In this document: positions 251 to 5,733 of the stretch, one piece after another | How positions within the stretch are numbered: position 1 is the stretch's first letter | Layout: the number at the start of each line of letters is the position of its first letter | Virus record (IMG/VR): IMGVR_UViG_2554235189_000003 | Direction: 5' to 3' (one strand) | Source of the DNA: a virus | Taxonomy: Duplodnaviria > Heunggongvirae > Uroviricota > Caudoviricetes | Length of the DNA stretch: 5,733 nt | The notes under the pieces: generated by a model | Seen by the model: the letters and a program-made list of their open reading frames with translations, nothing else | Told to the model about the DNA's origin: nothing | Databases searched by the model: none | Made by a program: the position numbers and the translations under genes

Positions 251-814
251 GTGCTGACAACGCAAAAACGAAAATTTGCGCTGGCGCTCATGTCCGGGAA
301 AAACAAAACAGCGTCAGCCATTGCCGCCGGTTATTCGGCGAAGACCGCCAGGGTTAAAGGCTCGCAGCTGGCAAAAGATCCGGAGGTGCTCGCGTTTATA
401 GCCCGTAAACAGTGCGAAACGGTGGAGGTGGATGAGGTTCCTGTTTACCGGCAGAAAAAATCAGAGCAGGAGGATAAACCCCGTCGCCGTGAGGTGGCTG
501 CAATACCACAGCCGGACGAAAACAATCCGGAGATGCCTCCGCCCGCGGTGATATCTCATGGTATTGAATATATGGAGGATGGTCTTCCCGATCCGGTGAA
601 AGCTATGGGGCAGATCCTGGTGGAAAACCTGATAATTGACCCGAAACTGGCACTGGATGCGGCCTGGCGACTGGCGCAGTTCACACACCATAAAAAAGGC
701 GATGCCGGTAAAAAATCGGCAAAAGGTGATGCCGCGAAAAAAGCGGCTAACCGTTTTGCGGTGCCACCACCTCCCCGACTGGTGGTGAATAACCAGAATG
801 AGGAAAGCGGATGA
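251..814 (+). CDS. terS: Phage terminase small subunit (Terminase_2-like, N-terminal helix-turn-helix DNA-binding domain)
   Basis: N-terminus LTTQKRKFALALMSGKNKTASAIAAGYSAKTARVKGSQLAKDPEVLAFI fits the conserved pattern of the small-terminase HTH domain (K-x-K-F-A ... A-G-Y-S-x-K-T-A ... G-S-x-L). GTG start at 251 with GGAGG at 241-245 (5-nt spacer); in-frame stop upstream at 185-187. Stop TGA 812-814 overlaps the terL ATG. Start could alternatively be ATG 290, which has no ribosome-binding site. Confidence 0.85.
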   Translation: MLTTQKRKFALALMSGKNKTASAIAAGYSAKTARVKGSQLAKDPEVLAFIARKQCETVEVDEVPVYRQKKSEQEDKPRRREVAAIPQPDENNPEMPPPAVISHGIEYMEDGLPDPVKAMGQILVENLIIDPKLALDAAWRLAQFTHHKKGDAGKKSAKGDAAKKAANRFAVPPPPRLVVNNQNEESG

Positions 815-2472
815 TACCTGTATGGAGCACGGCATGTCCGGACTGGGCAGAGCGCCTGAAAAAGGGGCTGTCGATTATTCCGGATCCGATTTATCCGGAC
901 GAGGCCGCACATGCCCTGGCGATTTTTAAACAACTGCGGATTGTGGATGCACCTGGTAGCCCGACGTTCGGGGAGTCCTGTGCACCGTGGGTGTTTGACC
1001 TGGTGGCGGCCCTGTTTGGCTCCTACGATGCGCAGACCGGTGTACGCCATATCAAGGAAGTTTTTATCCTTATCCCCAAGAAAAACTCGAAGTCCACGCT
1101 GGCCGCGGGGATCATGATGACGGCGCTGTTACTGAACTGGCGGCAGGCGGCGGGTTACACGATTCTGGCCCCGACTGTGGAGGTGGCGGCCAACGCCTTC
1201 AACCCTGCCCGGGATATGGTACGACGTGACGATGATCTGGATGACCTCTGCCAGGTACAGACCCATATCCGGACCATCACCCACAGGGTGACAGACACCA
1301 CCCTGAAGGTGGTGGCAGCCGATCCGAATACGGTGTCCGGTATCAAGTCCGTGGGGACACTGATTGATGAACTGTGGCTGTTTGGCAAGCAGTGCAAGGC
1401 GGAGGACATGTTACGTGAAGCCATAGGCGGCCTTGCCTCCCGCCCGGAAGGGTTTGTGGTGTACACAACCACCCAGTCGAATGAACCGCCTGCCGGGGTG
1501 TTCAGACAGAAACTGCAGTACGCCCGGGATGTCCGTGACGGCAAAATTCATGATCCGCACTTTCTGCCGGTGATTTTTGAGCATCCTCCTGAAATGGTGG
1601 AAAGCGGGGCTCACCTGCTGATGGAAAACCTCGCCATGGTTAACCCGAATCTCGGTTATTCGGTGGATGAGGCTTTTCTGTACCGGGAGTACCGTAAAGC
1701 CCGGGAGGCTGGTGAGGAAGCATTTCGTGGCTTCATGTCAAAACACGCCAATGTGGAAATCGGTCTTGCCCTGCGTTCTGACCGCTGGGCGGGCGCGGAT
1801 TTCTGGGAGCAGCAGGGCCGTTGTATCAGCCTGGACGATATCCTGCGTCGTGCTGATGTGGTGACGGTGGGGATTGACGGCGGAGGGCTGGATGATCTGC
1901 TGGGGATGTATGTGATTGGGCGTGACCGGGAGACCCGCGAATGGCTGGGCTGGGGCCATGCCTGGGCGCATGAAACCGCGGTGGTCCGACGGAAGAGCGA
2001 GGCGTCCCGGTTTCAGGATCTTGTTGCCTGTGGAGATATGACCATTGTCCGGCGTGTCGGGGATGACACGGCGGAAGTGGCGGAATATGTGCGTCGCATT
2101 CATGAGGCTGAGTTACTGGACCATATCGGTATTGACCCGTCAGGGGTGGGGCAGATTCTGGATTCACTGGCGGAAGCCGGGATCCCCGACGGAATTGTGG
2201 TGGGGATAAGCCAGGGCTGGAAACTGGGCGGGGCCATCAAAACCACCGAGCGCAAACTGGCTGAAGGGGTGCTGATTCACGGTGATCAGCCCCTGATGGC
2301 CTGGTGTGTCGGTAATGCCCGGGTGGAGCCTAAAGGTAACGCCATTCTTATCACCAAACAGGCCAGTGGACGGGGAAAAATTGACCCGCTGATGGCGCTG
2401 TTCAATGCGGTCTCCCTGATGTCCCTCAACCCGGAACCGAAAAAGAAAGAATATGCGGTTTTTTTCATATAA
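811..2472 (+). CDS. terL: Phage terminase large subunit (ATPase plus RNase H-like nuclease)
   Basis: 553 aa. Deviant Walker A P-K-K-N-S-K-S-T at aa 89-96 (nt 1075-1098); Walker B-like L-I-D-E at aa 184-187 (nt 1360-1371); acidic nuclease-like motifs G-I-D-G-G (D356, nt 1876-1878), I-G-I-D-P-S-G (about aa 439-445) and G-K-I-D-P-L (about aa 522-527). Ribosome-binding site GAGGAA at 799-804, 6 nt before ATG 811. Sits directly after terS. Confidence 0.93.
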   Translation: MIPVWSTACPDWAERLKKGLSIIPDPIYPDEAAHALAIFKQLRIVDAPGSPTFGESCAPWVFDLVAALFGSYDAQTGVRHIKEVFILIPKKNSKSTLAAGIMMTALLLNWRQAAGYTILAPTVEVAANAFNPARDMVRRDDDLDDLCQVQTHIRTITHRVTDTTLKVVAADPNTVSGIKSVGTLIDELWLFGKQCKAEDMLREAIGGLASRPEGFVVYTTTQSNEPPAGVFRQKLQYARDVRDGKIHDPHFLPVIFEHPPEMVESGAHLLMENLAMVNPNLGYSVDEAFLYREYRKAREAGEEAFRGFMSKHANVEIGLALRSDRWAGADFWEQQGRCISLDDILRRADVVTVGIDGGGLDDLLGMYVIGRDRETREWLGWGHAWAHETAVVRRKSEASRFQDLVACGDMTIVRRVGDDTAEVAEYVRRIHEAELLDHIGIDPSGVGQILDSLAEAGIPDGIVVGISQGWKLGGAIKTTERKLAEGVLIHGDQPLMAWCVGNARVEPKGNAILITKQASGRGKIDPLMALFNAVSLMSLNPEPKKKEYAVFFI

Positions 2473-2497
2473 CCCTGTTCACACTGTAACCATCACG

Positions 2498-2518
2498 AAC
2501 CGCTCCGGCGGTTTTTTT
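2498..2518 (+). terminator. Candidate weak rho-independent terminator or attenuator between terL and the capsid gene
   Basis: AACCGC (2498-2503), loop TCCG, GCGGTT (2508-2513) gives a 6-bp stem, followed by a T-run through 2518 and more T's to 2523. Stem is short, so termination is probably partial. Confidence 0.3.
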
Positions 2519-2535
2519 ATTTTCAGGAGGCTGAT

Positions 2536-4473: not shown

Positions 4474-4487
4474 GTCTGATGAGGAGG

Positions 4488-4509
4488 GCGGGAGGCGCGA
4501 GCTTCCCGC
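4488..4509 (+). other. Stable RNA hairpin (9-bp stem, GCGA tetraloop) 15 nt after the capsid stop; candidate mRNA 3' stabiliser or processing/attenuation element
   Basis: 5'-GCGGGAGGC-GCGA-GCTTCCCGC-3': 4488-4496 pairs with 4501-4509 (eight Watson-Crick pairs plus one G-U), loop 4497-4500 is a GNRA tetraloop. No U-tract follows, so it is not a canonical intrinsic terminator. The stem contains a GGAGG at 4491-4495. Confidence 0.4.
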
Positions 4510-4517
4510 AGTAACAG

Positions 4518-4739
4518 ATGGCAAAAATCCAGTATCTGCAGGGCACGCATGATGCCCGGGCCGGGGATATCCGTGATGTGGCACAGCCGTGTGCGGAGGT
4601 GCTGGTTCGCCTGGGGAAGGCGGAGTACATCACAGCGCGACGTCCGGCAGGTCAGAAAAAGAAACATGATGCGGAGCATAGCGAATGTGGAACTTTTTGC
4701 GACGAACCCGAAAAAACCAGAAATCAGGACGTGATGTAA
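4518..4739 (+). CDS. Hypothetical small protein (73 aa) between capsid and portal; function unknown
   Basis: ORF MAKIQYLQGTHDARAGDIRDVAQPCAEVLVRLGKAEYI... uses enterobacterial-like codons (CTG, CAG, GCG, CCG, CGT) and has a mixed, protein-like composition. No Shine-Dalgarno within 15 nt of ATG 4518, and the ORF overlaps the predicted portal start by 55 nt in another frame. Could be a real small head or connector-associated protein, or a chance ORF. Confidence 0.35.
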   Translation: MAKIQYLQGTHDARAGDIRDVAQPCAEVLVRLGKAEYITARRPAGQKKKHDAEHSECGTFCDEPEKTRNQDVM

Positions 4740-5733
4740 AAGAGGTGGGCTGGACCAGCCTGTTTCAGGCGGTGGCTGAGCCCTTTGCCGGCGCCTGGCA
4801 GCAGGGTGTGAAAGCCGATCCGGAAAGTGTCCTCTCCTTTCATGCGGTGTTTTCTTGCATTTCGCTGATATCCCAGGATATCGCCAAAATGCGGCTGCGC
4901 CTGATGCAGACGGATACACAGGGGATCCGCTGTGAAAAACGGCAGGGGGATATTGCCCGTCTCTGTCGTCGTCCCAATGCACAGCAGAATCGTATCCAGT
5001 TTTTTGAACTGTGGCTGAACGCCAAACTGCGTCACGGCAATACGGTGGTGCTGAAAATCCGTAACTCCCGGGGGCAGATCAAAGAACTGCGTATTCTGGA
5101 CTGGAGCCGGGTTGAACCTCTGGTGGCGGATGACGGCGAGGTGTTCTATCGCATCACGCCGGACCGGAACTGCGGGATCACGGAGGCGGTGACGGTGCCT
5201 GCCCGGGAAGTGATCCACGACCGGTTTAACTGTTTTTTTCATCCGCTTGTGGGGCTGCCGCCGGTGTATGCCGCCGGGCTGGCGGCCACGCAGGGGCATC
5301 ATATTCAGGAAAATTCGACGTCTTTTTTCAGAAATGGCGGCAGGCCGTCCGGGGTGATTGAGATCCCCGGCAGTATTACGGAAGAAAATGCGAAAAAACT
5401 GAAGAGCAACTGGGACAGCGGGTATACCGGCGAAAATGCGGGGAAAACGGCCATTCTGAGCAACGGGGCAAAATACAACCCCACGACGTTTTCACCGGTG
5501 GATGCGCAGACGGTGGAACAACTGAAGATGACCGCTGAAATTGTCTGTTCGGTGTTCCGTGTCCCGGCCTACAAGATTGGCGTTGGCCAGCCACCTTCCA
5601 GTGACAACGTGGAGGCGCTGGAGCAGCAGTATTATTCCCAGTGCCTGCAGACGCTGATTGAGTCCATTGAACTGTTACTGGATGAGGCGCTGGAAACGGG
5701 GGAAAACGAGAGTACGGAGTTTGACGTCACCAC
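4685..5733 (+). CDS. Phage portal protein (HK97-family type), 3' end truncated by the window edge
   Basis: Open frame from ATG 4685 to the window end, missing from the ORF track because it has no stop. My translation gives ...SFHAVFSCISLISQDIAKMRLRL...FRNGGRPSGVIEIPGSITEENAKKLKSNWDSGYTGENAGKTAILSNGAKYNPTTFSPVDAQTVEQLKMTAEIVCSVFRVPAYKIGVG..., which matches conserved portal motifs (AV-F/Y-x-C ... IA, N-A-G-K-T-A-x-L, F-x-V-P). GGAG at 4673-4676 lies 8 nt before ATG 4685; in-frame stop TAG at 4679-4681 just upstream. Confidence 0.9.
   Translation, partial: MWNFLRRTRKNQKSGRDVKEVGWTSLFQAVAEPFAGAWQQGVKADPESVLSFHAVFSCISLISQDIAKMRLRLMQTDTQGIRCEKRQGDIARLCRRPNAQQNRIQFFELWLNAKLRHGNTVVLKIRNSRGQIKELRILDWSRVEPLVADDGEVFYRITPDRNCGITEAVTVPAREVIHDRFNCFFHPLVGLPPVYAAGLAATQGHHIQENSTSFFRNGGRPSGVIEIPGSITEENAKKLKSNWDSGYTGENAGKTAILSNGAKYNPTTFSPVDAQTVEQLKMTAEIVCSVFRVPAYKIGVGQPPSSDNVEALEQQYYSQCLQTLIESIELLLDEALETGENESTEFDVT

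Follow-up and report, generated by a model that had tools for sequence, protein, structure and literature searches.

Gene content of the window

We analysed a 5,733-nt stretch of DNA from a tailed virus of the Caudoviricetes (IMG/VR record IMGVR_UViG_2554235189_000003), hereafter referred to as the window. Positions 251–5733 of the window were found to be filled by five open reading frames (ORFs) on the plus strand, which make up a phage head module comprising the terminase genes terS and terL, a gene encoding a prohead protease fused to the major capsid protein, a small ORF, and a portal gene:

251–814, plus strand: terS, 187 aa, GTG start; PF03592 (E = 1.3e-8) and phrog_641 (E = 4.9e-68)
811–2472, plus strand: terL, 553 aa; PF03354 (TerL_ATPase, E = 2e-11) and PF20441 (TerL_nuclease, E = 4e-10)
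2536–4473, plus strand: protease/capsid fusion, 645 aa, GTG start, AGGAGG 6 nt upstream
4518–4739, plus strand: small ORF, 73 aa; phrog_829 (E = 1e-37), a PHROG without assigned function
4685–5733, plus strand: portal gene of the HK97 family, residues 1–349 of 454, running past the end of the window

All five ORFs are intact, with neither a frameshift nor an insertion sequence (IS). The terL start overlaps the terS stop via ATGA, and the terL product also matched phrog_7622 (E = 5e-152) and phrog_9 (E = 5e-146). The portal call was upheld by profile hidden Markov models, as the sequence matched PF04860 (E = 2.3e-69, 234 bits against a cut-off of 39), TIGR01537 portal_HK97 (E = 1.4e-90, 304 bits against a cut-off of 112) and phrog_2271 (E = 2.6e-248), as well as PDB chains that included 6te8/6tba (‘Phage portal protein, HK97 family’, E = 1.3e-11) and the portal chains 9lbn (6e-17) and 8cez/8fql (3e-12). 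The most likely start of the portal ORF is the ATG at 4685, which is preceded by GGAG 9 nt upstream and creates a 55-nt overlap with the small ORF. The latter, for which no Pfam or NCBIfam match was obtained, has a homologue at the same position in most enterobacterial relatives (41–70% identity); its conservation is confined to the first ~55 residues, and its 3′ end is the part overlapping the portal start. PADLOC, Rfam and tRNA scans of the window returned no matches.

The 645-aa fusion protein matched phrog_617 over its full length (E = 2e-258), and two conserved regions can be distinguished in it. Residues 48–152 correspond to Peptidase_S78 (PF04586; E = 3.7e-8, 34 bits against a cut-off of 21), while the score against TIGR01543, the model for the S78 prohead protease, was 45.7 bits and lay under the equivalog cut-off of 59. 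His55, Ser110 and Glu135 are invariant among 27 homologues, in the motifs WQH55D, GLS110VGF and E135VS..VP, and we take these to be catalytic residues from what is known of the family; the N-terminal region has the features of a prohead serine protease of the S78 type, the catalytic His and Ser included. The C-terminal region is a capsid protein, with residues 386–635 matching Phage_capsid (PF05065; E = 6.5e-15, 55.7 bits) and residues 201–584 matching TIGR01554 major_cap_HK97 (E = 3.6e-22, 79 bits against a cut-off of 27.5) from profile position 3 onwards. A coiled-coil segment resembling the delta domain lies inside the fusion at about residues 193–300. No separate scaffold gene was found in the window, nor any scaffold-like ORF in the flanks of contigs L003–L005 (see below), and the module is of the type in which an HK97-fold capsid protein bears an N-terminal delta domain in the place of a separate scaffold gene. 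A PDB sequence search with the fusion protein gave a distant capsid protein as the sole match (E = 0.003).

A preliminary description of the window had listed the same five genes in the same order, with protease and capsid fused and with no separate scaffold gene, and had pointed out that this order departs from that of HK97 and lambda. These observations were borne out in full: the portal gene follows the capsid gene, and the canonical order terS, terL, portal, protease, capsid is absent.

Genomic context

An identical copy of the window’s terL protein is encoded by 14 public contigs, five of which (L003, L004 and L005 among them) align to the whole window at 99.9% identity, with 6–7 differences that fall mostly in the first 90 non-coding bases. 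Upstream of the module, the contigs carry lysozyme and Rz-type lysis genes, a DUF3950 gene and a gene for an HNH endonuclease. Contig L006, which reaches 10 kb upstream, adds genes for RusA, the antiterminator Q, a methylase, an esterase and a holin. On the downstream side, the rest of the portal gene (454 aa in total) is followed by genes for a 353–407-aa repeat protein, a head-tail connector, a head-closure protein and an HK97-gp10-like protein, and then by the tail genes, which encode a tail-completion protein, the major tail protein, the G/T chaperones and a lambda-type tape measure protein. In the contigs of 99.9% identity, the neighbouring genes are intact over ~4 kb upstream and 10 kb downstream.

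The best match among complete genomes was that of strain 14EC007 (97.8%), in which the module is surrounded by a full lambdoid prophage with a LexA-type repressor, CII, O/P, the nin region, Q, a lysis cassette, the head genes, gpJ, Lom and tail fibres. In the Sakai prophage Sp10, annotated as a ‘lambda-like phage’, the module shows 94.2% identity with five genes of identical length, and lies between an integrase and a tail fibre gene. The same arrangement was found in Stx2a_WGPS2 and BP-4795. Both the 99.9% contigs and the annotated relatives place Q and the lysis cassette upstream, and the lambda-type tail genes V, G/T, H, M, L, K, I and J downstream, of the head genes, and the elements carrying the module are 44–62 kb long. 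The window is almost certainly the late-operon block for DNA packaging and head assembly from a temperate lambdoid phage, complete and long-tailed, of the BP-4795/Sakai-Sp10/2851/phi330 type.

Is the copy in the window part of a functional phage? Most of the lambdoid prophages in the Sakai strain are defective, and yet they are packaged through complementation between prophages (PMC2669165). As matching modules occur at a median of two and at up to eight places per Escherichia coli genome, and several copies are interrupted by IS insertions, the window could have been derived from a defective (cryptic) prophage, of which the intact head module is used via complementation by, or recombination with, co-resident prophages. 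We regard this as an unlikely but real alternative. The five ORFs in the window are intact, and so are the neighbouring genes in the contigs of 99.9% identity. Moreover, this alternative would alter the status of the copy and not the identity of the module.

The preliminary description had speculated that the module belongs to a satellite which forms its own capsids and borrows the tails of a helper phage, and had regarded a complete prophage as equally possible; the evidence from the flanks clearly favours the latter. The resemblance to phage-inducible chromosomal islands that form capsids (cfPICIs), such as EcCIEDL933, is superficial. These islands do share the HNH, terS, terL, capsid, portal and head-tail connector genes of the HK97 type (PMC10085698), and no tail gene falls in the window. 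Nevertheless, cfPICIs lack tail and holin genes and possess integrase, AlpA and primase genes, whereas the element studied here is associated with lysis and tail genes and with a lambdoid early region. The genes for a holin, lysozyme and Rz are located 1–4 kb upstream of the module, and those for the major tail protein, G/T, the tape measure protein, gpL/K/I/J and the fibres directly downstream, in the 99.9% contigs and the annotated prophages; holin and tail genes are forbidden in cfPICIs by SatelliteFinder (PMC10085698). The 10 kb upstream in L006 contain RusA, Q and the methylase, not integrase, AlpA or primase, and the elements are 44–62 kb long against about 10–15 kb for cfPICIs. Finally, phi330 produces complete tailed virions. 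We thus consider a satellite origin extremely improbable. For satellite searches in general, the case cautions that terminase, capsid and portal genes with no tail gene in view do not amount to a cfPICI until the flanks have been checked.

Distribution and previous records of the module

Of the 5426 complete E. coli genomes searched, 1243 contained a match to the module that covered 80% or more of the window. In addition, 94 phage records matched, including Stx1a-, Stx2c- and Stx2a-converting phages, PPompW prophages, BP-4795, 2851, 1717, YYZ-2008, JLK-2012, Lys8385Vzw and phi330. Ninety-two phage records and Sp10 showed 94–98% nucleotide identity over 100% of the window, so that near-identical head modules are on record in numerous phages; the match to the Salmonella phage FSL SP-016 was 70.7%. 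The members of the group formed by BP-4795, Sp10, 2851, 1717, YYZ-2008 and phi330, which correspond to the genera Marienburgvirus, Pankowvirus and Sawaravirus of the International Committee on Taxonomy of Viruses, have the same genes in the same order and of the same lengths (564, 1662, 1938, 222 and 1365 nt) at 94–98% identity. Their flanks are alike as well, with the HNH gene upstream, and the repeat protein, the connector and a lambda-type tail downstream. As the window differs from this group by point differences only, it can be regarded as another allele of the same module. Phages of the BP-4795/Sp10 type carry stx1a, stx2c and some stx2a genes, together with many type III effector genes, and their head module is among the commonest prophage head modules of pathogenic E. 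coli.

The novelty implied by the preliminary description did not survive this survey. That the gene order might turn out to be common and already described in full-length prophages was the outcome which the preliminary description itself had named as fatal to its proposal, and it is what the 1243 E. coli genomes and the annotated relatives demonstrate. The order has long been annotated in BP-4795 and Sp10, and the large ORF has long been labelled ‘major head protein/prohead protease’ in GenBank. Asadulghani et al. (2009) remarked on a ‘slightly different’ organisation of the head genes in Sp6, Sp9, Sp10 and Sp12 (PMC2669165); in a limited literature search, we found no quotable, explicit description of the gene order beyond that paper. 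The same work reported that all morphogenetic genes are conserved in Sp10, which was packaged and transferred to K-12 (PMC2669165). The siphophage phi330, purified in caesium chloride, forms plaques; its head measures 55 nm and its flexible tail 145 nm, and OmpC serves as its receptor (PMC12502783).

We also considered whether the module specifies a prolate head, since Stx2c phages and one type of Sakai particle have elongated heads. This idea was abandoned, because the 55-nm head of phi330, a phage with 94% identity in the module, is isometric, and no claim on head shape is made here.

Comparison with other head modules and conservation of the gene order

The head module of HK97 has the order HNH (gp74), terS, terL, portal (gp3), protease (gp4) and capsid (gp5). 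The window shares with HK97 the portal family (TIGR01537), the S78 protease (TIGR01543/PF04586), the capsid protein with an N-terminal delta domain replacing a scaffold gene, the HNH endonuclease gene beside the terminase genes, and the gp10-like and head-closure genes downstream. On the other hand, the portal gene follows the capsid gene instead of preceding the protease gene, the protease and capsid protein are encoded by one ORF, and both the 73-aa ORF and a 350–460-aa repeat protein after the portal are extra to the HK97 set. The similarity to HK97 is at the family level only.

Fusions of protease and capsid protein are known elsewhere. The lambdoid prophage Gifsy-2 reportedly has a single ORF for its protease, its major capsid protein and a segment between the two, the products of which are said to be separated by proteolysis, and provides an experimental precedent for such a fused gene. 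The Gifsy-2 protease is said to be of the ClpP/S49 type, the intermediate segment to resemble the decoration protein gpD, and the portal gene to lie upstream as in lambda; the fusion in the window differs from this account in having an S78 protease and a middle segment of the HK97 delta type. In actinobacteriophages of unrelated hosts (for example, Microbacterium cluster EE and Arthrobacter cluster AU), ‘Major capsid and protease fusion protein’ is a routine annotation class. The NCBIfam model for fusions, NF045541, matched the fusion in the window weakly (48 bits against a cut-off of 525), which places the latter outside that model. In concept, the fusion also resembles the tripartite capsid gene of Gifsy-2 (Effantin 2010, Virology 402:355).

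We scanned one genome per species for homologues of the fusion protein, and mapped the gene order by tblastn with the proteins of the window and their neighbours. The scan retrieved 29 loci with a homologue of this protein in alpha-, beta- and gammaproteobacteria, at 31–77% protein identity, which share the order HNH, terS, terL, protease-capsid, (small ORF), portal, repeat protein and connector. Among Enterobacterales, the order is kept in Enterobacter, Buttiauxella, Kluyvera, Citrobacter, Phytobacter, Atlantibacter, Kosakonia, Pantoea, Rouxiella, Erwinia and Entomohabitans, and it is retained at 31–53% identity in Hydrocarboniphaga, Marinobacter, Chelativorans, Hyphomicrobiales, Caulobacteraceae and Snodgrassella. 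The proposal of a distinct lineage of head modules in the preliminary description is sound in this respect, and its interpretation is partly supported as a whole: the lineage is real, while the satellite is refuted and the arrangement is common and on record. This lineage is real and old, though common and already known, and the position of the portal gene behind the capsid gene is fixed in it.

A full-length fusion ORF of 630–666 aa was found in 23 independent genomes from many genera. In Snodgrassella (L036 and L037), separate genes encode the protease (234 aa) and the capsid protein; they have the same order and lie ahead of the portal gene. Since Snodgrassella is unfused and yet has the capsid gene before the portal gene, the portal-after-capsid order is older than the fusion. 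The unfused genes in Snodgrassella might be taken to mean that the fused ORF arose from an error in assembly or sequencing, or is a stop-loss pseudogene, and that the real phage has two genes, but we can practically dismiss this idea given the 23 independent genomes, the about 1200 E. coli genomes and the plaque-forming phages with the fusion, and the existence of models for such fusions (PHROG 617 and NF045541). As the genes share a strand, are separated by short junctions or overlap, and seemingly form one transcription unit, the position of the portal gene needs no special function.

The protease/capsid junction

The arrangement of the head module being already known, the mildly new lead from our analysis is a conserved candidate internal start at the junction between the protease and capsid regions:

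3097–3114, plus strand: candidate internal start; AAGGA resembling a Shine-Dalgarno (SD) sequence at 3097–3101, in-frame ATG at 3112 (Met193) 10 nt later

Translation from Met193 would yield a product of 453 aa, and the TIGR01554 capsid profile begins to align eight residues after Met193 (residue 201). Among 25 homologues, a motif of the AGGA or GGAG type and an ATG (GTG in one) are kept in nearly all, while the residues of the linker vary (KKGNNT, HKEKSA, PQEGN, PREGRD and RTEGK; K-G, K-E, E-G or T-G). Wherever Gly is present at the junction, its codon is GGA, which accounts for 110 of the 1175 Gly codons in these genes. The start codon is shifted by one or two codons in three alphaproteobacterial relatives. 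In our reading, the junction motif is the ancestral capsid gene’s own ribosome-binding site and start codon, which have been retained. The SD-like motif and the start codon have been kept despite the varying linker, and the two genes are unfused in Snodgrassella; thus, production of free capsid protein from the internal start is suggested.

We tentatively propose, with slightly more doubt than conviction, that the fusion is a nested gene with two products, in which a minority species of 645 aa would bring the S78 protease into the procapsid via its capsid moiety, and the bulk of the capsid protein would be the 453-aa product from Met193. In lambda (C/Nu3) and Mu (I/Z), the protease is an N-terminal extension of the scaffold protein, and an in-frame internal start supplies an excess of the scaffold protein by itself. 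The internal-start product proposed here would differ from Nu3 in being the capsid protein itself (delta and shell) and not a separate scaffold protein. If this is genuinely the case, the fusion gene is an HK97-type counterpart of lambda C/Nu3, with the capsid protein as the delivery vehicle. No published account of an internal capsid start in this lineage was found in our limited literature search.

A model for head assembly

The following steps are modelled on the HK97 paradigm. TerS and TerL, together with an HNH endonuclease whose gene lies immediately upstream of the window, would recognise and cut a cos-type site, which probably resides in a conserved non-coding element at and before positions 1–45 of the window (see below). 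The HK97-family portal would nucleate the procapsid, and the HK97-fold capsid protein would form the shell, its N-terminal coiled-coil (delta-like) segment standing in for a scaffold protein. The S78 protease would enter the procapsid covalently fused to the N-terminus of the capsid protein, and would then remove the delta segment as well as itself. Translation probably also begins at the internal SD-like sequence and the ATG at Met193 to give free capsid protein, in which case the full-length fusion would be the minority species that delivers the protease. The feature specific to the lineage is the tethering of the protease to the capsid protein.

Several points weigh against the interpretation presented here. 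As for the context, it comes from contigs that differ from the window at 6–7 positions and not from the window’s own flanks, and many prophages of this type in enterohaemorrhagic E. coli are defective, so that this copy need not be inducible. As for the junction, the alphaproteobacterial relative L034 has no start codon at the aligned position, and the homologues are phylogenetically related, so that the counts of conserved junctions are not independent of each other. The non-coding element is a candidate cos on the grounds of its conservation. Lastly, we found neither a solved structure nor a biochemical study of the fused protease and capsid protein; the capsid of a very common lineage appears to be without a solved structure.

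Non-coding elements

Three further features were noticed in the non-coding parts of the window:

1–45, plus strand: right half of a conserved non-coding element (GGACACCGCGCCCCCTCTCACGCAGAGAAAAAAT), candidate cos or terminase recognition region
54–175, both orientations: five copies of TGTTAAC, inside a ~190-nt stretch (about 62–250)
2497–2524, plus strand: terminator-like hairpin and T-run (GAACCGC-TCCG-GCGGTTT; 7-bp stem with 4 G-C pairs, tail TTTTATTTTC), a consensus match only

The HNH-terS intergenic regions of E. coli, the Salmonella phage FSL SP-016, Enterobacter, Citrobacter, Kosakonia, Atlantibacter, Buttiauxella and Erwinia were aligned. The alignment revealed a ~90-nt element upstream of terS (GGGGGGGTA...CGATCGC..GGACACCGCGCCCCCCTCTCACGCACAGAAAAAAT), which is nearly invariant from E. 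coli to Erwinia while its surroundings are not conserved. The conserved element spans GGGGGGGTA...GCCCCCCTCTCACGC, and extends upstream of the window (L003:3735–3870 and L010:3390–3520).

The motif TGTTAAC occurs five times in the window, all at positions 54–175, against 0.32 occurrences expected, and none of 200 shuffled sequences reached five. The ~190-nt stretch containing the repeats is missing from the relatives outside E. coli, in which terS starts directly after the element at ATGTTAAC and a single copy of TGTTAAC lies at the terS start codon. An insertion or duplication in the E. coli lineage seems to have repeated the ancestral terS start, with terS now starting from the GTG at 251. 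Could the repeats be terS binding sites? We regard this as a possible function.

The terminator-like hairpin, located between terL and the capsid gene, falls midway through the late operon and is presumably read through by Q-modified RNA polymerase. The relatives also possess a T-rich stretch and AGGAGG ahead of the capsid start.

The ORF downstream of the portal gene

An ORF of 347–461 aa follows the portal gene, starting about 0.3 kb past the end of the window (L005:8819–10042, L003:9869–10930 and L011:11491–12534). Its product combines a coiled coil at the N-terminus with tandem repeats of ~54 aa (DDVRPMLEQMVKEAVSHIPAPRDGRDYDPEVLKQAV...), which vary in number, and with a conserved domain at the C-terminus, and gave no Pfam match. 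It is possible that this repeat protein is a head fibre or a decoration protein.

The ORF is widely mis-annotated as a ‘portal protein’ or a ‘frameshifted portal’. For instance, phage 2851 (L043, about 6990–7000) has an 859-aa ‘portal’, which differs from the split form only by six instead of five G residues in a run 18 nt before the portal stop, as seen by comparison of L043 with L010, L041 and L005, and also with L001:22682–25266; the ‘frameshifted portal’ calls go back to the same G-run. A programmed frameshift joining the portal gene and the downstream ORF was considered and rejected, as the difference in the G-run is most simply explained by an indel or a sequencing difference rather than by a conserved recoding signal. 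The Salmonella phage FSL SP-016 lacks the G-run and has two ORFs overlapping via ATGA, which indicates that two genes are the ancestral state. The ‘frameshifted portal’ flag set by the Prokaryotic Genome Annotation Pipeline (PGAP) is probably an annotation artefact.

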